A stretch of 64,000 nt of DNA, from the IMG/VR virus record IMGVR_UViG_3300024259_002316, positions 15,719 to 79,718 of that record; one strand, written 5' to 3'. Source of the DNA: a virus. The notes below the pieces were generated by a model, which saw nothing but the letters and a program-made list of their open reading frames with translations, had not been told where the DNA came from and made no database searches. A program made the position numbers and the translations under genes. The first letter of the stretch is position 1. Every line of letters begins with the position of its first letter. This document shows, one piece after another, positions 3,849 through 48,404 of the stretch.

Positions 3849-3877
3849 TATTCTATATAAGTTAAAAAAATCCTTTA
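3849..3877 (-). promoter_or_regulatory. Putative sigma-28-like late promoter
   Basis: TAAAGGATTTTT-N10-TAGAATA; both boxes identical to the copy at 17801..17829. Confidence 0.65.
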
Positions 3878-16861: not shown

Positions 16862-17764
16862 TTACTTAATATTTTTAGAATAGCGTATTGGCTTTAACTC
16901 TTTATATATTTTAGTAATTGAGCTTTCTCCTGTTCTGGCTCTCTCTTTCTGCTCTTCTGTCCCTCTCTTATAAACTTGAAGTATTCTACAAATACTTTTC
17001 TCTCCTATCCCTATCTTTTTAGATAATACTTTTTTAATATCTATTTTTTCCGACATTCCTCCATCAATTCTAATAAATTGATTTCCTCCGAATCTACTTA
17101 AATTATATTTTGCTTTATCTTGTAATCTCTTAACCCATTCTTTTCCTAATTCTTTTTCAACAATATTGTAATATATTATTTTTGGACTATTAATTATTTT
17201 TAAATATTCTTCTCTTTGCCTTTTTACTTTTTCTTGTTCTTCTTCATAATGCAGCTCTCTATGACAAATAGCACAAAGAACTGTGCATTTTTTTATTTCT
17301 TTTAATATCCTTTCTTTTGAATATCTTAAACCTACGGCTTTAGCTATGTGAAAATCTTTTCCTTCAGGATCTTTATGATGAAAATCCAAAGCTCCCACAC
17401 ATCGATTATATCCACATATTTCACATTTCAACGTCTTCTTATATTCATCAAACCATAATCTATTTTTTTCTCTTGTCTTCCTTCTATATTCTGCGTTTTT
17501 TACCTTATTAAGAGTATTCCATTTTGTGCCATATTCTTTTTTTCGCTTCTCTTTTTCTTCTTGTTCTTTTTTATACTTTTTTGTTAATACGTGTTTTGTT
17601 TTCAAATAATATTTTTTATTAGCTTCCTTTCTTCTTTCTCCTTCCCTCTTATCATTTCTTCTTTTTCTCTTAGCTGTATTTTTACAATCATTACTACAAT
17701 ACATTGTTCCTTTTCTACCGCAGAAATTCTTTTTACATATATTACAACTTAATTCTGTTACCAT
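16862..17764 (-). CDS. HNH homing endonuclease-like protein with N-terminal Zn finger
   Basis: CEICGY...ALDFHH.DP..K....I.KEIKKCTVLCAICHRELH; AGGAG RBS. Confidence 0.8.
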   Translation of the reverse strand: MVTELSCNICKKNFCGRKGTMYCSNDCKNTAKRKRRNDKREGERRKEANKKYYLKTKHVLTKKYKKEQEEKEKRKKEYGTKWNTLNKVKNAEYRRKTREKNRLWFDEYKKTLKCEICGYNRCVGALDFHHKDPEGKDFHIAKAVGLRYSKERILKEIKKCTVLCAICHRELHYEEEQEKVKRQREEYLKIINSPKIIYYNIVEKELGKEWVKRLQDKAKYNLSRFGGNQFIRIDGGMSEKIDIKKVLSKKIGIGEKSICRILQVYKRGTEEQKERARTGESSITKIYKELKPIRYSKNIK

Positions 17765-33537: not shown

Positions 33538-33566
33538 ATAATAGAGGTTATATAATCACTTTTCAA
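33538..33566 (-). promoter_or_regulatory. Sigma-70-like promoter for nrdJ
   Basis: TTGAAA-AGTGATTATATAACCTC(17)-TATTAT. Confidence 0.6.
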
Positions 33567-34878: not shown

Positions 34879-35382
34879 CTATTTTTCCTTTACGAAATTA
34901 TTAAACTCTCTTACAAACTCTTCATTATCATCAATTATTTTTATTTCTATATTCTCTTTATATCTAATACAAACTTCTAATGTTATCCTAGCAACTGTTT
35001 TAGCATCAAGATTTCCAGCATCTATCCCTACCCCACAAATAGTTAAAGATTGCATCCCGTCACTAATTACTTTCTTCAGAGCATTATCCAAAGCTTTATT
35101 AATTATATAAATCGAACTAAAATCACTTTGCAATCTTTTTATCACAACATGATACAATCTTTTCAGACCTCTTCTTTTCAATCTTCCAGGGCCCGTTGAG
35201 AAACAGTCTCCTACTTCTATTGTATTATTCGTAATAAACTGCTTTACTTCTTTAGAAATCCCTGAAAGACCATTTTTCACTATTCTTGCAGGGACGCCTC
35301 TGCTCATCACTCCCATCGTATTGGAGGGAATAATAAGAGCTTCTGATTTAGGATAACATACATCTCCTAAAATAGCTTGCAT
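34879..35382 (-). CDS. Macrodomain (ADP-ribose-binding) protein
   Basis: ILGD....SEALI.PSN..G.M..GV...I; GD...T.PG.L; diverged from the canonical NAAN/GGG motifs. Confidence 0.7.
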   Translation of the reverse strand: MQAILGDVCYPKSEALIIPSNTMGVMSRGVPARIVKNGLSGISKEVKQFITNNTIEVGDCFSTGPGRLKRRGLKRLYHVVIKRLQSDFSSIYIINKALDNALKKVISDGMQSLTICGVGIDAGNLDAKTVARITLEVCIRYKENIEIKIIDDNEEFVREFNNFVKEK

Positions 35383-35642: not shown

Positions 35643-36488
35643 TTAAAATAGAGGTCCATTGTCATTACATTTCTTTATAAATTCTTCTATATTACTTCCA
35701 AAGAAGTCGGGGTTACGCTCTATTTTATTTTTTAGTCTATTTATAATATCCATATGAATCTGACTGATTCTAGATTCTGAAGTATTAATTTTAGCACCTA
35801 TCTCTCCCATAGTTAAATTCTCATAGTAATAATAATAAATTATTTTTTGTTCTATTAATGAAAAGTTTTTACTAATTAACTTACTTATAAATTCTTTTCT
35901 AATTAACTTACTATCGGGAGAATTAGACTTAGTATCTGCCAAATCTACTAAAGAATCTTGTTTAAAATCTTCATGCTTACTAGAATCATTAATATCACTG
36001 CCTTCAATACTTATGAGATTTAAAGGACTGTATTTTTTAATATTAGTAGCATATTCTTTCTGATTTATACCTAATTGCTCTATAACCTCATATTCTGTAA
36101 CTTTTCTTCCTTCTAAGTGTTCTAATTCTTGTCTTTTCTTCTCAATAAGGTTCTGATTTAACCTTACAGATCTTGGAACAAAATCATTTTTTCTAACATT
36201 ATCTATCATTGAGCCACTTATTCTACGATTAGCATAAGTAGGAAAATCTACCCCTCGATCCAAAGAAAATCTATCAATCGCTATGTATAAACCATCTAAA
36301 CCATAGCTAGTTAACTCATCTGGCTGTAGATTCCATTGTAAATTCTCAGCTATTTTAAAAGAAATCTTTTGGACTAAAGGGTAGTAAAGTTCAACTAATT
36401 GTTGTTTAAATTTGTCTTTTTTGCTTTTTATGCTCTCTTTTTGAAATTTTTGCCATAGTTCTATATTACTAATTTTTTGTTTTTCCAT
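35643..36488 (-). CDS. RNA polymerase sigma factor, FliA/WhiG (sigma-28) type
   Basis: Region 2 LVELY.PLV...DEL.SYG..GL..AIDRF...RGV.F.TYA..RI.G.M.D..R..D.VPRSVR; region 4 Y.ENLTM.EIG......SESRISQIH. Confidence 0.88.
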   Translation of the reverse strand: MEKQKISNIELWQKFQKESIKSKKDKFKQQLVELYYPLVQKISFKIAENLQWNLQPDELTSYGLDGLYIAIDRFSLDRGVDFPTYANRRISGSMIDNVRKNDFVPRSVRLNQNLIEKKRQELEHLEGRKVTEYEVIEQLGINQKEYATNIKKYSPLNLISIEGSDINDSSKHEDFKQDSLVDLADTKSNSPDSKLIRKEFISKLISKNFSLIEQKIIYYYYYENLTMGEIGAKINTSESRISQIHMDIINRLKNKIERNPDFFGSNIEEFIKKCNDNGPLF

Positions 36489-36523: not shown

Positions 36524-36552
36524 ATGTTAAAGAAAAAACTATCACTTTTCAA
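36524..36552 (-). promoter_or_regulatory. Sigma-70-like promoter for the sigma gene
   Basis: TTGAAA-AGTGATAGTTTTTTCTT(17)-TAACAT. Confidence 0.5.
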
Positions 36553-43705: not shown

Positions 43706-44637
43706 TCTCTATTTACTTTCGCATATCGCCACAGACTAGACATTTTACTCTTTTTCTTTTGAACCATATCTATAGTAGTTTTGCTTTGGATGCCGTCCAT
43801 GATTCCTGTTTCTCCTGGCCCTCCAAATAGTTTCTTTCTGTCATCATCGTCAAGTTGTTCTTGAGTTATTTCAACAGTATCAACAACTTCATTAAAAGCT
43901 CTTTTTTGTATAATTATATTATAAACAAATACTCCTACTAGTGCTGCTAATATAATTCCTCCGCCTATTACCACATAGACAAAATAAGCTTCTACAAATA
44001 TGGCGATAGACATAACCACAATACACATAGCAGCAAGAGTGAGGCTTAATTTACTATTATACATAAAGCCAAAAACTCCCAATGCTCCTGCTCCAACTAT
44101 AGATGCAAGAATTAGCCATTTTATAGCTCTATGGATAGCAGCGTCCCTTTCATTCTCTGCTTTTATCTTTGCTTCTATGGCTTGGTCTCTTTCTTGAGCC
44201 ATAGTTTCTAAGGCTTTTTCTATAGTTGCTATTTTTTCCTTCGCATTTACTAATAATCTTTCAGCCCCCGTTATTCCTACTGATGCTTCATTGATTATTT
44301 TAGTGTCTTCAATAATGTTATCAGAGCTTTCTTTAATAGTGTCCAAGTGAGGATCTATATCTTCCCTAGCCTCATCTGGAACTTTCTTTTGAACTTTAGT
44401 TGTTTCATGATTTATTGTTATGGCTTCCTTTGTTATATCTTTAGTCGCCACTTTAATAGCTTTATTGCTTTCTTTTATAGCCTTGTGCGCATCTGTTATG
44501 TCTTTTTTAGGGTTAAGCTCTGGCTTAATAATAGGTGCTTTTTTGCAAAACAGACCAAAAGATGAGCACAAACGACCACAACCCGCTGACCCCATCATAA
44601 ACATACATAGCAACATGATAATAACTTTATTCTTCAT
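43687..44637 (-). CDS. Predicted lipoprotein with coiled coil and C-terminal transmembrane helices
   Basis: Signal peptide ending SAG-C, long heptad region, about 3 TM segments. Confidence 0.6.
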   Translation of the reverse strand: MKNKVIIMLLCMFMMGSAGCGRLCSSFGLFCKKAPIIKPELNPKKDITDAHKAIKESNKAIKVATKDITKEAITINHETTKVQKKVPDEAREDIDPHLDTIKESSDNIIEDTKIINEASVGITGAERLLVNAKEKIATIEKALETMAQERDQAIEAKIKAENERDAAIHRAIKWLILASIVGAGALGVFGFMYNSKLSLTLAAMCIVVMSIAIFVEAYFVYVVIGGGIILAALVGVFVYNIIIQKRAFNEVVDTVEITQEQLDDDDRKKLFGGPGETGIMDGIQSKTTIDMVQKKKSKMSSLWRYAKVNREQNRSP

Positions 44638-44977
44638 TACAATTTCCTTTATCTATAGTGTTTAAATATTCTATAATTGTCCATACAAGTCCAGCCGTAA
44701 TGAGCCCACTAAAAGGCCAGAAGAAATACAAAGAACCTAAAAAACAAGCAATAGTGCCAATAACGATATCAGCGACCAAGGTTGTCCAGAATGACGTGCA
44801 AGTAGTGCATGATAGCATTTCAGGAAGTTTGGGATGAATTTTGCCCATGATTGTCTGCAATTTATCTCTAAATGGCTTAATTGGCCAATCATCTCCCTTT
44901 TCGACTAATAAGATTGCCATCCCGTATCCAAGTATTACGGATATCATTAAACAAATCAAAAATTCAAGCATAGACAA
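44627..44977 (-). CDS. Small membrane protein (DUF1360-like)
   Basis: TM helix, L.C..C.SFW motif, further TM helices. Confidence 0.55.
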   Translation of the reverse strand: MSMLEFLICLMISVILGYGMAILLVEKGDDWPIKPFRDKLQTIMGKIHPKLPEMLSCTTCTSFWTTLVADIVIGTIACFLGSLYFFWPFSGLITAGLVWTIIEYLNTIDKGNCNEE

Positions 44978-45009: not shown

Positions 45010-45037
45010 ATTATAGATATTTTGCTTTCACTTTCAA
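45010..45037 (-). promoter_or_regulatory. Sigma-70-like promoter
   Basis: TTGAAA-GTGAAAGCAAAATATC(16)-TATAAT. Confidence 0.55.
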
Positions 45038-45047
45038 ATCTTATTTT

Positions 45048-45076
45048 TGCAGGATTTTGTGAGGTTTTATCGAAAG
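45048..45076 (+). promoter_or_regulatory. Putative late promoter for the long kinase isoform
   Basis: TGCAGGATTTTG-N10-TCGAAAG, 8 nt before ATG 45085. Confidence 0.45.
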
Positions 45077-45084
45077 TATAAAAC

Positions 45085-45600
45085 ATGAATTGGTATAAAA
45101 AAACATTGACAAGTGATTCTCAAAGTGATATTATTTCTCCAATGAAAAAAGAATTTATCATCATGAGGGGAGCCAGTGGATCGGGTAAGTCCTTTCTAGC
45201 TAAACAATTAGCAGGAGAAAATGGGCAAATTTTCTCTGCTGATGACTACTTTATGGACTATCAAGGGAATTATAATTGGGAGGGCAGTGAGATATCTACT
45301 GCTCATAAGTGGAACCATAATCGTATAAAAGAAGCTATAGAAAATGGAATCTCTCCTGTAGTAATGGATAATACCAATATCACGATGTGGGATATGGCTC
45401 AATCAAAACCCATAATACAGCATGCCATGGAAAGAGGATATGATGTCAGAATAGAAGAAACTCAAACTCCTTGGGCCTTTGATCCTAAAGAACTAGCAAA
45501 AAGGAATACTCACGGACTAGATGAGAAAAGAATAGAAAAGCAAATTAGTAGGTGGGCTCCTGACGTTACTGTTGATGATGTGTTAAATTATGAAAAATAA
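45085..45600 (+). CDS. AAA_33/N4BP2-like polynucleotide kinase
   Basis: IMRGASGSGKS, FSADDYF, VVMDNTN, RNTHG. Confidence 0.85.
   Translation: MNWYKKTLTSDSQSDIISPMKKEFIIMRGASGSGKSFLAKQLAGENGQIFSADDYFMDYQGNYNWEGSEISTAHKWNHNRIKEAIENGISPVVMDNTNITMWDMAQSKPIIQHAMERGYDVRIEETQTPWAFDPKELAKRNTHGLDEKRIEKQISRWAPDVTVDDVLNYEK
45106..45134 (+). promoter_or_regulatory. Sigma-70 promoter embedded in the kinase leader
   Basis: TTGACA-17-TATTAT ending 7 nt before in-frame ATG 45142 (Met20). Confidence 0.65.
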
Positions 45601-46114
45601 ATTAAAAAAATGGCCCAATAATTGGGTAGAGCACATGACGGAAACATGTTTTTTCTATTTTGAAGATAAAGAAATATCTTTTATAGATTCAAAGATTCTT
45701 TGTTCGGACAAGACAAAACAAGCTAAAATATATTGTATTTGTTTGACTTTTAAAAAATATAATAAAATATACGATATTTTTATCAATTATGAAGGGTCAT
45801 GTTTTGTAGTAAACTATTATTATAAAAACTATTATAACTTAAAAAGAAAAAAAGAACTAGAACAAGATTTTATTTTTATGATGGACACTTTGCTAAGAGG
45901 GGCTGATAAGGTTGGCTCATTTCTTTATTCTGATTTGGGAGGAGAAGCTTCAAGAGATAATATCACATCTGCTTATAACATAACCCAATCTATAGAAAAT
46001 ACTATTAATTTTCATTCTGACAGAAATGACGATGATGATAATGAAGAAGAGAGAGATCCGATTGAACCTCTCTCTCCGTGCGATATGGTGGAGCCAGAAC
46101 TAATCTGTTCTTAA
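45590..46114 (+). CDS. Hypothetical protein
   Basis: 174-aa coupled ORF. Confidence 0.55.
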   Translation: MKNKLKKWPNNWVEHMTETCFFYFEDKEISFIDSKILCSDKTKQAKIYCICLTFKKYNKIYDIFINYEGSCFVVNYYYKNYYNLKRKKELEQDFIFMMDTLLRGADKVGSFLYSDLGGEASRDNITSAYNITQSIENTINFHSDRNDDDDNEEERDPIEPLSPCDMVEPELICS

Positions 46115-46722
46115 ATTTTTATAGTTTGAGCAAGAATGTCTTTTACTTTGATATTCTCAGTTTGATACCATCCGGTCGGCATGCCCTCAAAACATTGATT
46201 CAGATAAAAACAATAATGATTATACCAATTCTTCCGAGCATGTTCTGTTGATTTTATAATAGCTTTTTTCTCTGTGCCAGACGTAATATTGGCATATCTT
46301 TCTGCTTCTTTATTTATATCTTCTGATTCTTTTTTATTTACGCAAATAGGACCCCAATGAACTAATTTTCTATCACCAGAAATAGCCCAACAATCAATAT
46401 TATATTTGGCAAAAGTTAGAAATTTTTTACTAAATTTTATTGCTAAAGGGTCGTATCCTTGATTTTCTAAATAGTTGTCAGAGCAGATGTTACTAAGTAT
46501 TTTATTGTCTATTGCTAAAAGATCTCCTGAATGAAAAATTGTTTTAGCTAAAACATCTATATCTTTAACTCTAATGTTCGGTTTTGTTATATTTTTAGAA
46601 TATGAACCCCACAAATGAACAGACTTTACTCCTTCTACATCTTTAAGAGAAGAAACAGTTTTTTCGATGTATGGTTTTGCCTCTTTGATTTTAGGCATAC
46701 ACTTTTCGTACCAAGAACTCAA
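46111..46722 (-). CDS. Pol-beta-superfamily nucleotidyltransferase
   Basis: VHLWGSY...KDIDVL; TTG start with GGAG RBS. Confidence 0.7.
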   Translation of the reverse strand: MSSWYEKCMPKIKEAKPYIEKTVSSLKDVEGVKSVHLWGSYSKNITKPNIRVKDIDVLAKTIFHSGDLLAIDNKILSNICSDNYLENQGYDPLAIKFSKKFLTFAKYNIDCWAISGDRKLVHWGPICVNKKESEDINKEAERYANITSGTEKKAIIKSTEHARKNWYNHYCFYLNQCFEGMPTGWYQTENIKVKDILAQTIKI

Positions 46723-46753
46723 TATATGTCTCCATAAGTTATATTATACTTAT

Positions 46754-46782
46754 TATTCGACTAAAATTTTAGTATTCCTTTA
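46754..46782 (-). promoter_or_regulatory. Putative sigma-28-like late promoter
   Basis: TAAAGGAATACT-N10-TCGAATA. Confidence 0.6.
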
Positions 46783-46846
46783 TTGCTAATATGAATTTAG
46801 TAATTTTCCGATATAAGGATATTAACTTTTTAGTAGGATAATTATA

Positions 46847-47614
46847 ATGAAAAAAAAGATATATGATTTTATAGATAATGAAGAAAAATATATTCCTATA
46901 ATAGCAAAAGAAATTATTGAGACATTTAAACAAGAAGCTAATTCTGAAAATGTAGAATATAGTTTTACTATTGATGGAGAAACAAAAGAGATAAAAGAAG
47001 ATAATGCTAACACATATTTTGTTTTTGATACCATCGGGGAAACATGCCTTGATAGTTTTAAGAAATTACTTTTTGATGAAGATTTAGCAGACATAGAAGA
47101 AGAAAGCGACGAAGAAAGACAATTAATGGAAGATGTGAGAAACTTTCTTTTAAAAATATGTAAAGAAATAACAGTTGGTTATAAAAAAGATGTTCAAAAG
47201 ACTATTCGTAGAGTAGTTTTGGGAGACAAATACGGAGAAAAACAGGTTCCTCTTTCAGATATAGAAGTGATATCAATAGATGTGGCAGACTATTCTTCTG
47301 TCCCAGAATCCTATAAATATATTTTGAGAATAGGGAAAGTTCCTCACTCAGAGATAAGTACAGATGAAATTATCAAATTTGTGCAGAATAGACAAGAATT
47401 AACAGGAATGGATATAGATAGTGTATTCTCTATCGAGAAACAAGCAGGTAACCCGTTATTTGACAATGTTTTAGTTATTGAGCCCACAAGAAAGTTCTTA
47501 AATGAAATATCTATTTATCTTTTTGTGGATTATACTATACTAGTAAATGACGAAGAAACTGTAATAAAAGAAAAAAAGAAAAAAGCAAAAAAGAAAAAAA
47601 TACAATCAAGTTAG
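46847..47614 (+). CDS. Hypothetical protein
   Basis: 255-aa ORF with AGGA RBS. Confidence 0.7.
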   Translation: MKKKIYDFIDNEEKYIPIIAKEIIETFKQEANSENVEYSFTIDGETKEIKEDNANTYFVFDTIGETCLDSFKKLLFDEDLADIEEESDEERQLMEDVRNFLLKICKEITVGYKKDVQKTIRRVVLGDKYGEKQVPLSDIEVISIDVADYSSVPESYKYILRIGKVPHSEISTDEIIKFVQNRQELTGMDIDSVFSIEKQAGNPLFDNVLVIEPTRKFLNEISIYLFVDYTILVNDEETVIKEKKKKAKKKKIQSS

Positions 47615-47620
47615 GAAAAA

Positions 47621-47742
47621 GACAGCATACAACTGCTGATCTGATAAGATTGTATATTATTGGTAAGTGGAGCGTTGTTAAGTTCTCGAGATCGGCTATC
47701 ACGTTTCTATTTATTAGAGAACTGATAATAAACAATCTTATC
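47621..47742 (+). ncRNA. Candidate structured ncRNA upstream of tRNA-Arg
   Basis: Nested inverted repeats: GATAAGATTGT/ACAATCTTATC (11 bp), TATTAT/ATAATA, AGTTCTC/GAGAACT; small CAGCA/TGCTG hairpin before them. Confidence 0.4.
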
Positions 47743-47756
47743 TCCTTTTTCATAAA

Positions 47757-47827
47757 GCCTTGGTAGTTCAGTGGGCGAACAGCTATTTCCGAAATAGAAA
47801 ATGAGGGTCCGATTCCCTTCCAGGGCA
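47757..47827 (+). tRNA. tRNA-Arg(CCG), no encoded CCA
   Basis: Cloverleaf: GCCTTGG/CCAGGGC acceptor, GTTC/GAAC D-stem, loop TT-CCG-AA, atypical T-loop TCCGATT. Confidence 0.75.
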
Positions 47828-47840
47828 GTAGGAAGATAAA

Positions 47841-48404
47841 ATGAATGAAGAAATATCTAAAAATTACATCATAACGGATAGCCATTTTTCCCATGAAGCT
47901 ATGCAGCAATATTGTGGTAGACCCTTTGATTTTGAGAAAAAGATAATCAAGCAATGGCAGGCAACCGTTAGCCCTCAAGATATAGTGTTTCATCTAGGAG
48001 ATGTCACATGGGGATCTCAAGGACAGCTACAGCAGATAATGCATGGATTGCCAGGAACTAAAATTCTTATTAGAGGAAATCATGACAAAGACCATTCTAA
48101 TAATTGGTTTATTAAAGCAGGTTTTTCTGTTGTTCTAGAAAAAGCTCAAATAAGTAAAGTTATCTTGTCCCATTTCCCTGCCATTTTAAGTCGAGAAGAA
48201 ATAGATTTTAACATTATTAATATCCATGGGCATTTTCATAATATGCCTCCAAAAAAATGGGAAAAGCAATTAATAGAAAGAATTACTTATAATCATTATT
48301 TACTTAGTTTAGAAGACGTTAATTATAAGCCAATATCATTAGAAGCAGCTATAAAAAGAAAATTTATCAAAAATTCCAAAAAATTATTGGAAAGTGAAAA
48401 ATGA
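47841..48404 (+). CDS. Calcineurin-like metallophosphoesterase
   Basis: TDSHF.H, HLGD, RGNHD, LSHFP, IHGHFH. Confidence 0.88.
   Translation: MNEEISKNYIITDSHFSHEAMQQYCGRPFDFEKKIIKQWQATVSPQDIVFHLGDVTWGSQGQLQQIMHGLPGTKILIRGNHDKDHSNNWFIKAGFSVVLEKAQISKVILSHFPAILSREEIDFNIINIHGHFHNMPPKKWEKQLIERITYNHYLLSLEDVNYKPISLEAAIKRKFIKNSKKLLESEK

Follow-up and report, generated by a model that had tools for sequence, protein, structure and literature searches.

A host-type promoter sequence conserved within the coding linker of a tagged phage kinase gene, and its probable role in making two forms of the enzyme

Introduction

Why should a viral gene carry, within its own first codons, a sequence that looks like a complete host-type promoter? 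The question arises at the gene for a polynucleotide-kinase-like (PNK-like) protein in a stretch of 64,000 nucleotides (nt), here called the window, from the virus record IMGVR_UViG_3300024259_002316. The open reading frame (ORF) begins with a short peptide, MNWYKK, that is joined by a linker to the enzyme, and the promoter-like sequence lies in the linker, just ahead of an internal in-frame methionine codon (Met20). An earlier note, made from the window alone, had proposed that the gene is read from two nested promoters, giving a short early kinase and a late form whose leader directs it into the phage head. We find that the internal promoter and the internal start have been retained at the DNA level in a clade of related phages, and that this start coincides with the boundary of the kinase fold. 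On the strength of these sequence comparisons we consider it quite likely that two isoforms are produced from two promoters.

The kinase fold begins at the internal methionine

The 171-residue product matches the Pfam family AAA_33 (2e-14, residues 25-155), and a profile of its family matches the kinase domain of T4 Pnk at 6e-07 and also the Pnkp of Clostridium thermocellum (CthPnkp). An AlphaFold model of the 171-residue protein (mean pLDDT 88.7) has CthPnkp, T4 Pnk, PSTK and Pnkp1 as its top Foldseek matches, with a probability of 1.0. The features of AAA_33 PNK-like kinases are all present, namely a Walker A motif (GxxGxGKS), an acid motif after strand 2 and the PNK fold; residues K35, S36 and D53 are invariant in the family, and the alignment with T4 Pnk includes DDY. 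Judged by sequence and model, the gene product is a predicted stand-alone polynucleotide-kinase-like P-loop kinase. Like the kinase domains of T4 Pnk and CthPnkp (1ly1/1ltq and 4gp6/4gp7) it has a P-loop kinase fold with a Walker A motif and an ADDY/RDDY acid motif, but it is about 20% identical to them and lacks a phosphatase domain.

The first 17 residues are modelled as disordered (pLDDT <50) and the first beta-strand starts at residue 22. In the profile alignment residue 2 of T4 Pnk pairs with position 22, so that Met1 of the T4 enzyme falls at Met20-21 and corresponds to the N-terminus of the short form; the earlier note had placed the beginning of the fold at Met20, and both lines of evidence agree with it. 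Because of this fold start and this alignment, the product of the internal start (MKKEFIIMRGASGSGKS...) would possess the natural N-terminus of a kinase fold. Protein searches recovered 116 kinase homologues, most of the closer ones with the same 19-residue leader.

An internal promoter with the geometry of a leaderless mRNA

The promoter sequence is present within the first 19 codons as described in the earlier note: a TTGACA hexamer (45106-45111), a 17-nt spacer and a TATTAT hexamer (45129-45134) are followed, after 7 nt, by the in-frame ATG of Met20 at 45142. It matches the sigma-70/sigma-A consensus at 11 of 12 positions and is accompanied by AGTGA directly after the -35 and TG before the -10. 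There is no Shine-Dalgarno (SD) sequence ahead of the ATG, the intervening bases being pyrimidine-rich and free of GGAG. The ATG lies at the expected transcription start, about 6-8 nt past the -10, which together with the missing SD is the arrangement found in leaderless mRNAs. Matches of at least 11/12 to the sigma-70 consensus occur four times in the window and shuffled sequences give 4.3; since the match in a single genome is not beyond chance, it is the comparative data that carry the case for a promoter.

Four copies of the exact pattern TTGMMAAGTGA are present in the window, where 0.25 would be expected, and looser members of the AGTGA class lie at 45037(-) and 49228(+); TTGACAAGTGA with two mismatches is not enriched there (19 matches, 25 expected). 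AGTGA could be an extended -35 element or the site of a regulator, and it is also kept in the kinase promoters of relatives. One exact copy precedes the gene for a phage sigma factor, which host polymerase must read, and for this reason the AGTGA promoters would constitute an early class. In the intergenic region before the kinase the host-type promoter points left, and the rightward host-type promoter has been placed after the tag and not before it, a layout that we count as an argument in its own right.

Conservation of the internal promoter among relatives

Fourteen distinct long-leader genes (48-70% protein identity) from viral and metagenome contigs, referred to below by L labels, were compared codon by codon. 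The promoter scores at least 10/12 in 13 of the 14, with a -10 that always ends exactly 7 nt before the same in-frame ATG; scores in relatives run from 10 to 12 of 12, five genes have a perfect TTGACA-17-TATAAT, and the ATG of Met20 is invariant (14/14). Leu8 is encoded by TTG in ten genes, although this codon accounts for 7% of leucine codons in the rest of the genes. The other four have CTT or GTT with GA behind it, so that TTGA(A/C)A is restored with a shift of one base and the spacer is 16 nt long. AGT encodes Ser10 in 12/13 genes, which retains the AGTGA after the -35. Residues 15-17, in contrast, vary (DII, DIM, NII, GNI, DKI, GII, SII, VII and VIV): codon 15 specifies D, N, G, H, S or V but has the form NNT without exception, and the first base of codon 16 is A throughout. 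As the linker residues vary while the hexamer bases stay, the constraint acts on the DNA and not on the peptide. Pairwise third-position identity is 0.67 over codons 8-17, compared with 0.45 over codons 21-46, which encode the better conserved P-loop. Resampling of synonymous codons gave P values of 0.003-0.034 for 11 of the 14 genes, and of 0.087 for the window's own copy.

The promoter also persists where the leader is no longer translated from its own start. In L098 and L099 an in-frame stop replaces the leader, yet a perfect TTGACAagtga-17-TATAAT with TG before the -10 remains and ends 6 nt before the kinase ATG, which is there the only start. The upstream ATG has become AGA in L083 and L088, with the promoter and Met20 untouched; at these loci (L083:397-1482 and L088:1-60) the kinase is fused in frame to the preceding tagged ORF, so that the order is tag, unassigned domain, RNWYKK, promoter linker and kinase. 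Resampling, the rare TTG, the NNT form of codon 15 and retention in non-coding DNA concur in showing that conservation of the promoter exceeds what coding requires. Kinase homologues with a short linker (MNWYKKAQNKKTLYIMRG) have neither the internal methionine nor the promoter, and the 11-residue linker can therefore be regarded as an insertion that is specific to the clade and has the promoter as its content. For comparison, 120 entries for tagged ORFs were scanned as a control for a promoter of at least 10/12 with an in-frame ATG; the 13 rows returned represent 12 distinct kinase genes (L129 repeats L100) and not a single non-kinase ORF.

These data bear on the possibility that only one protein is made, either from Met20 with untranslated promoter DNA upstream, or in the long form alone with a look-alike promoter arising from a conserved linker peptide. 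Such a view could draw on the chance-level match in the window, on the ease with which AT-rich coding DNA mimics -10 boxes and on the decision of several gene callers to begin homologues at the short start (entries of 152-158 residues). It is nevertheless very unlikely, given that the hexamers are constant where the linker residues are not, that the promoter outlives the coding leader, that no tagged ORF other than the kinases contains such a match, and that the MNWYKK peptide stands on a large set of ORFs and on kinase homologues devoid of linker and internal methionine.

A further alternative accepts the internal promoter as real but takes RNA to be its main product, an early transcript that would continue past the kinase into the convergent, late-promoted gene for a nucleotidyltransferase-like protein and control it by antisense or interference, with the short kinase as a by-product. 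The kinase and this gene abut or overlap in L001, L090, L093 and L240, with little or no room for a terminator, and the late promoter of the convergent gene is strongly conserved. The ATG is held at 6-7 nt in all 14 genes and coincides exactly with the boundary of the fold, which argues against an RNA product, as does the use of the short-form ATG as the sole kinase start in L098 and L099; in the window itself, moreover, a 174-residue ORF and terminator-like hairpins separate the two genes. We regard the antisense explanation as improbable. The internal promoter would serve no other sense gene, because the convergent gene directly follows the kinase in relatives.

MNWYKK is a peptide tag on many unrelated proteins

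The leader begins with a sequence whose consensus is M-N-W-Y-K-[K 58%]-[A 48%, S 27%]-[Q 44%, K 23%], followed by unrelated sequence. Pattern scans of viral contigs identified it on at least 116 distinct ORFs, all with 100 residues or more and belonging to many unrelated families, and it is kept in kinase homologues down to about 45% identity. When NWYKKAQ was searched without requiring a start codon, 20 of the 27 matches lay at the start or no more than six residues from it. Synonymous codons vary in the tag as they do in gene bodies (TAC 14% versus 17%, AAG 15% versus 24%), so the constraint here is on the peptide. These comparisons indicate that MNWYKK[A/S][Q/K] is a real peptide tag and that the long form of the kinase is real. 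The alternative that the leader is conserved as an element at the 5' end of the mRNA, serving leaderless translation or re-initiation, was considered and rejected, in view of the normal synonymous variation and of the occurrence of the tag on the SD-led genes at 20251(-) and 46722(-). In relatives, the internal promoter and the Met20 start are kept in the DNA, and the 19-residue extension is conserved and translated as a peptide tag.

Among the proteins that carry the tag are ART-PolyVal ADP-ribosyltransferases, GNAT acetyltransferases, a PARP-like/GNAT fusion and AAA_33 kinases, the last both singly and as fusions. Others are a helicase of the UvrD type, which contains a zinc ribbon and an intein, a poly(A)-polymerase-like nucleotidyltransferase (PolyA_pol) and proteins with multiple helix-turn-helix (HTH) motifs. 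In being a short N-terminal peptide common to unrelated proteins, the tag resembles a capsid targeting sequence (CTS) of the T4 type. Many of its carriers lie in arrays, with 17 tagged genes in L224 (387-8310, +), about 14 in L264 (2062-12957, +) and seven in L184 (147-3310, +); the arrays adjoin head genes in L184 and L232. The L224, L264 and L184 arrays consist of consecutive co-directional genes whose stop and start codons abut or overlap, and contain many small paralogues with a (Y)xDIGH motif. Relatives of the kinase locus have a variable island of one to four tagged genes between a conserved minus-strand gene and the kinase, which is the last and most conserved member of the island. A literature search with the letters of the tag returned no description of it, only unrelated dengue epitopes.

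In the window, four ORFs have [NS]W[YF] at residues 2-5 where 0.04 would be expected. The earlier note had pointed to NW(Y/F)K leaders on the head-module ORFs at 19791 and 20251, which we confirm, but had missed a fourth tagged ORF, the convergent neighbour of the kinase (46111-46722, -). Two more lie outside the window, which brings the tagged genes of this genome to six: the kinase, the nucleotidyltransferase-like gene, the two ORFs after the terminase and the two external ones, of which the gene for the 316-residue HTH protein follows a terminator hairpin and a late-like element ending 8 nt before its ATG. All six are located behind late-like elements, whose late class is itself an assignment from sequence, or in the head operon, and none is found behind a host-type promoter.

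The upstream element and the start of the long form

A late-type promoter consensus, AAGGA-N15-T[AC]GAATA, has three perfect copies in the window, at 3875(-), 17827(-) and 46780(-). The earlier note had described a promoter of this type 8 nt before the first ATG of the kinase; its position stands and is retained in relatives, while the match is weak and we only infer that the element is a late promoter. In L001/L193, L093 and L240, TTTGCAGGATT-N30/31-ATG has been kept at the orthologous position between genes, ahead of the first tagged gene. L086 and L091 have GAAGGA-N15/16-[TA]CGAATA, which is closer to the consensus and ends 7 nt before the kinase ATG, and L100 and L129 have a near-consensus copy whose end lies 7 nt ahead of another MNWYKK gene. 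Plausibly, therefore, the long form would also be translated from an RNA that lacks a leader and belongs to a phage-specific class. When other loci were scanned for the late consensus in the vicinity of head genes, nothing clear emerged. We also considered a late promoter of the T4 type (TATAAATA), for which TATAAAAC stands directly before the ATG, and rejected it, as the motif is not associated with gene starts in the window.

A kinase probably made in two forms

We propose that the long form (171 residues, from ATG 45085) would comprise the 8-residue tag, the 11-residue linker and the enzyme, and that its RNA would start upstream, probably at the late-like, phage-specific promoter; in relatives it could start at the same element or be supplied by read-through from an array of other tagged genes. 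For the short form (152 residues) the linker DNA would act as a consensus host-type promoter (TTGACA-AGTGA...-TATTAT) for the host RNA polymerase. Its RNA would start at the AUG of Met20 or one base before it, so that a leaderless mRNA would yield a tagless kinase. The tag would then have a job that is needed only late, the most plausible being loading into the head for injection, as in the case of the T4 internal proteins and Alt. Taken as a whole, this explanation of a kinase in two forms seems fairly likely. We rate the timing given in the earlier note, an early short form and a late long form, at slightly better than even.

A number of observations weigh against this explanation. In addition to the chance-level promoter match in the window, L092 has a poor -10 and an insertion in L082 removes the ATG at 7 nt. 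The element upstream of the kinase is a degenerate copy, of the 10/12 type, of the late consensus, and the window contains no second copy of its GCAGGA variant. In several relatives the long start is preceded by an SD and upstream coding sequence and not by a promoter.

It is possible, though doubtful, that the tag is a capsid-loading signal, a reading that leans on genomic context and on the analogy with T4. The HTH proteins and the helicase among its carriers need not be virion cargo, and no cleavage motif was detected at positions 9-25 behind the tag, where no residue is enriched more than about 3-fold and no Glu is conserved; the missing motif does not exclude cleavage after the tag. Two isoforms could also be made for the sake of a tag with another function, which might dock late proteins on the replication or transcription machinery, on a membrane, on a chaperone or on a protease, or might set their stability. 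This we place somewhat short of an even chance. A tag of only eight residues with no cleavage motif behind it would suit such a role, as would the presence of multi-HTH DNA-binding proteins, the UvrD-type helicase and the poly(A)-polymerase-like enzyme in the tagged set. On the other hand, two tagged ORFs hold a fixed place beside the terminase in the head modules of two phages, tagged arrays lie beside head genes in L184 and L232, and no tagged gene of this genome has a host-type promoter in front of it. A hypervariable array of unrelated small enzymes with one leader, furthermore, mirrors the T-even internal-protein locus (PMC3012670).

Returning to head loading, a wider reading may be put forward tentatively and by analogy: MNWYKK[A/S][Q/K] could be an undescribed head-loading (or other late sorting) tag, by means of which a clade of huge phages, possibly with anaerobic Firmicutes-like hosts, arms its virions with fast-changing small enzymes. 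The arsenal would include ADP-ribosyltransferases, acetyltransferases, an RNA/DNA-end kinase, nucleotidyltransferases and helicases, and the kinase would be injected in tagged form and made again, early and tagless, in the cell.

If the design works as we read it, it is a compact device by which a virus assigns two fates to a single enzyme, through a switch that consists of a promoter in the codons of a flexible linker and has long been kept in evolution. In uncultured huge phages dozens of unrelated proteins in each genome bear the tag, in arrays that resemble counter-defence arsenals, and the tag points to huge-phage proteins that may be delivered with the DNA. A tagless early kinase would be natural evidence for a stage-specific job of the tag, and makes the function of the tag testable.

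Neighbouring genes, genome and host

The features of the locus and of the window are listed in Table 1.

Table 1. Features discussed in the text. Positions are those of the window unless an L label is given.
Feature	Position	Strand	Remark
Full-length kinase ORF, 171 residues (MNWYKKTLTSDSQSDIISPMKKEF...)	45085..45600	+	Tag, linker and PNK-like P-loop kinase
Short in-frame kinase ORF, 152 residues	45142..45600	+	From Met20; predicted leaderless, tagless kinase
Address tag MNWYKK(T)(L)	45085..45108	+	Codons 1-8; conserved peptide
Intragenic sigma-70/sigma-A type promoter TTGACA-17-TATTAT	45106..45134	+	In codons 8-17
Phage-type, late-like promoter-like element GCAGGA (45049-45054)-N15-TCGAAAG (45070-45076)	45048..45076	+	Ends 8 nt before ATG 45085
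Divergent host-type promoter TTGAAA-16-TATAAT, AGTGA class	45010..45037	-	For membrane-protein gene 44627-44977 (-)
TTGMMAAGTGA, four copies	33556-33566; 35123-35133; 36542-36552; 45106-45116	-; -; -; +	Pattern scan of the window
Phage sigma factor (Sigma70_r2 + r4)	35643..36488	-	AGTGA-class host-type promoter in front, at 36552(-)
Head-module ORF, 152 residues, begins MSNWYKTS	19791..20249	-	Homologue in L176, at the same place after the terminase, begins MNWYKKNT
Head-module ORF, 77 residues, begins MANWFNKK	20251..20484	-	Homologue in L176 begins MNNWYKKAQ
Convergent neighbour, 203 residues, begins MSSWYEK (tag variant)	46111..46722	-	Putative minimal nucleotidyltransferase
Perfect late-type promoter AAGGA-N15-TCGAATA, then SD (GGAG)	46754..46780	-	Before the nucleotidyltransferase-like gene; conserved in L001, L090 and L093
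Two tagged ORFs outside the window: 316-residue multi-HTH protein (MNWYKRQIKISY...) and 174-residue protein	L291:189-1662	-	About 4-7 kb to the left

The convergent neighbour is putatively a minimal nucleotidyltransferase, judged by eye from a G-S...D-x-D motif, and its product has no match in Pfam, PHROG or NCBIfam. It is syntenic and 58-78% identical in L001, L090, L093 and L240, where it always begins MS[ST]WYEKCMPK. The PNK-like kinase, this gene and a calcineurin-type metallophosphoesterase gene (47841-48404) stand together (45085-48404) and are syntenic in relatives; the phosphoesterase has a weak, sub-threshold match to TIGR04123/PdeM (25.5 bits against a cut-off of 150). Bacterial Pnkp combines kinase, nucleotidyltransferase and phosphoesterase activities in one protein, and the three genes could be a split nucleic-acid end-repair set. 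Between the kinase and its convergent neighbour the window has the 174-residue ORF (45590-46114, +), which overlaps the kinase stop codon and whose product matches no family. This ORF is absent from all syntenic relatives, in which the kinase abuts the convergent gene, and represents a window-specific insertion.

The window has a GC content of about 33% and is part of a 90-kb virus record with an estimated completeness of 19%, which identifies it as a fragment of a huge phage. A minus-strand morphogenesis block, which includes the terminase gene (21356-24475), extends from position 1 to about 36.5 kb and is followed by a plus-strand block for metabolism and replication. The large terminase subunit has 1039 residues here and 637 in the related phage L176 (69% identity over 491 residues); the difference in size points to inserted sequence, for example an intein or a homing element. 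Near the terminase gene, behind a perfect late promoter, is a gene for an HNH endonuclease (16862-17764). An ORF of 1345 residues in the head module (24500-28537, -) corresponds to three separate ORFs in L176 (123, 181 and 1101 residues), a gene fusion or fission.

A DNA search of the kinase locus against cultured and deposited phages gave no match, and tblastn with the kinase found in deposited phages only distant ATPases (28-40% identity) without the leader, the best of them in an uncultured phage of 595 kb with no tagged ORF nearby. No relatives of the kinase were found in a scan of prokaryote genomes. A 19-kb contig of 28% GC (CAZYRX010000043.1; L294:3072-6650), binned with an uncultured Halanaerobium metagenome-assembled genome, carries four tagged genes, one of which is ART-PolyVal-like and begins MNWFKKASTYIAYHGS. 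The contig is probably a co-binned phage fragment. This bin, our only hint of the host, is a weak one that agrees with the saline-sediment sources and with the Firmicutes-like promoter and SD signals.

Comparison with known systems

The proteins encoded at the T-even internal-protein locus are diverse and defence-related, and a capsid targeting sequence is all that they have in common (PMC3012670). The tag described here resembles the CTS of T4 (IPI-III and Alt) in being a short N-terminal peptide on unrelated, fast-evolving proteins of a hypervariable locus (PMC3012670), in having an ADP-ribosyltransferase among its carriers and in its putatively late expression contexts. In contrast to the CTS, to which it has no sequence similarity, it is not followed by a conserved protease site, and its arrays are much larger, with up to 17 genes. 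The ART-PolyVal clade of ADP-ribosyltransferases was described in proteins presumed to enter the cell by injection along with the phage DNA (Iyer et al. 2017, PMC5512222). With these polyvalent proteins the tagged set shares the ART-PolyVal domain directly, while its GNAT, nucleotidyltransferase and helicase classes recall the proposed injected multi-domain effectors (PMC5512222). Here, however, separate small genes share one 8-residue leader and there is no giant fusion with a MuF or portal-linked module.

For nested products of one gene the closest parallel is T4 gene 49 (endonuclease VII), for which Barth, Powell, Trupin and Mosig reportedly described, in 1988 (Genetics 120:329), two nested in-frame proteins from early and late transcripts. 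Which protein is made is reported to depend on the structure of a longer early RNA and on the binding of ribosomes within it. Gene 49 and the kinase, as we read it, have in common a long and a short in-frame product that depend on the temporal class of the transcript. They differ in that the kinase gene has a complete host-type promoter in its coding linker, from which a leaderless RNA is predicted, and in that the piece removed is an address tag and not part of the enzyme. The lambda cI gene is expressed from a leaderless RNA (from PRM) and a leadered one (from PRE), the same protein being made from both. Intragenic ORFs for leaderless isoforms have been mapped in Caulobacter and Mycobacterium (PMC4117421, PMC9094748), and internal leaderless starts can yield N-terminally shortened isoforms. 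As in cI and these bacterial cases, a -10 about 7 nt before the AUG would produce an mRNA that begins with the start codon. Few of the bacterial isoforms are reported to have a conserved architecture linked to function, whereas the promoter of the phage kinase is conserved in the clade and placed exactly between tag and fold. The phage kinase gene differs from all of these systems in that a complete consensus promoter is encoded in the linker between an address tag and an enzyme and is conserved across a clade of phages.

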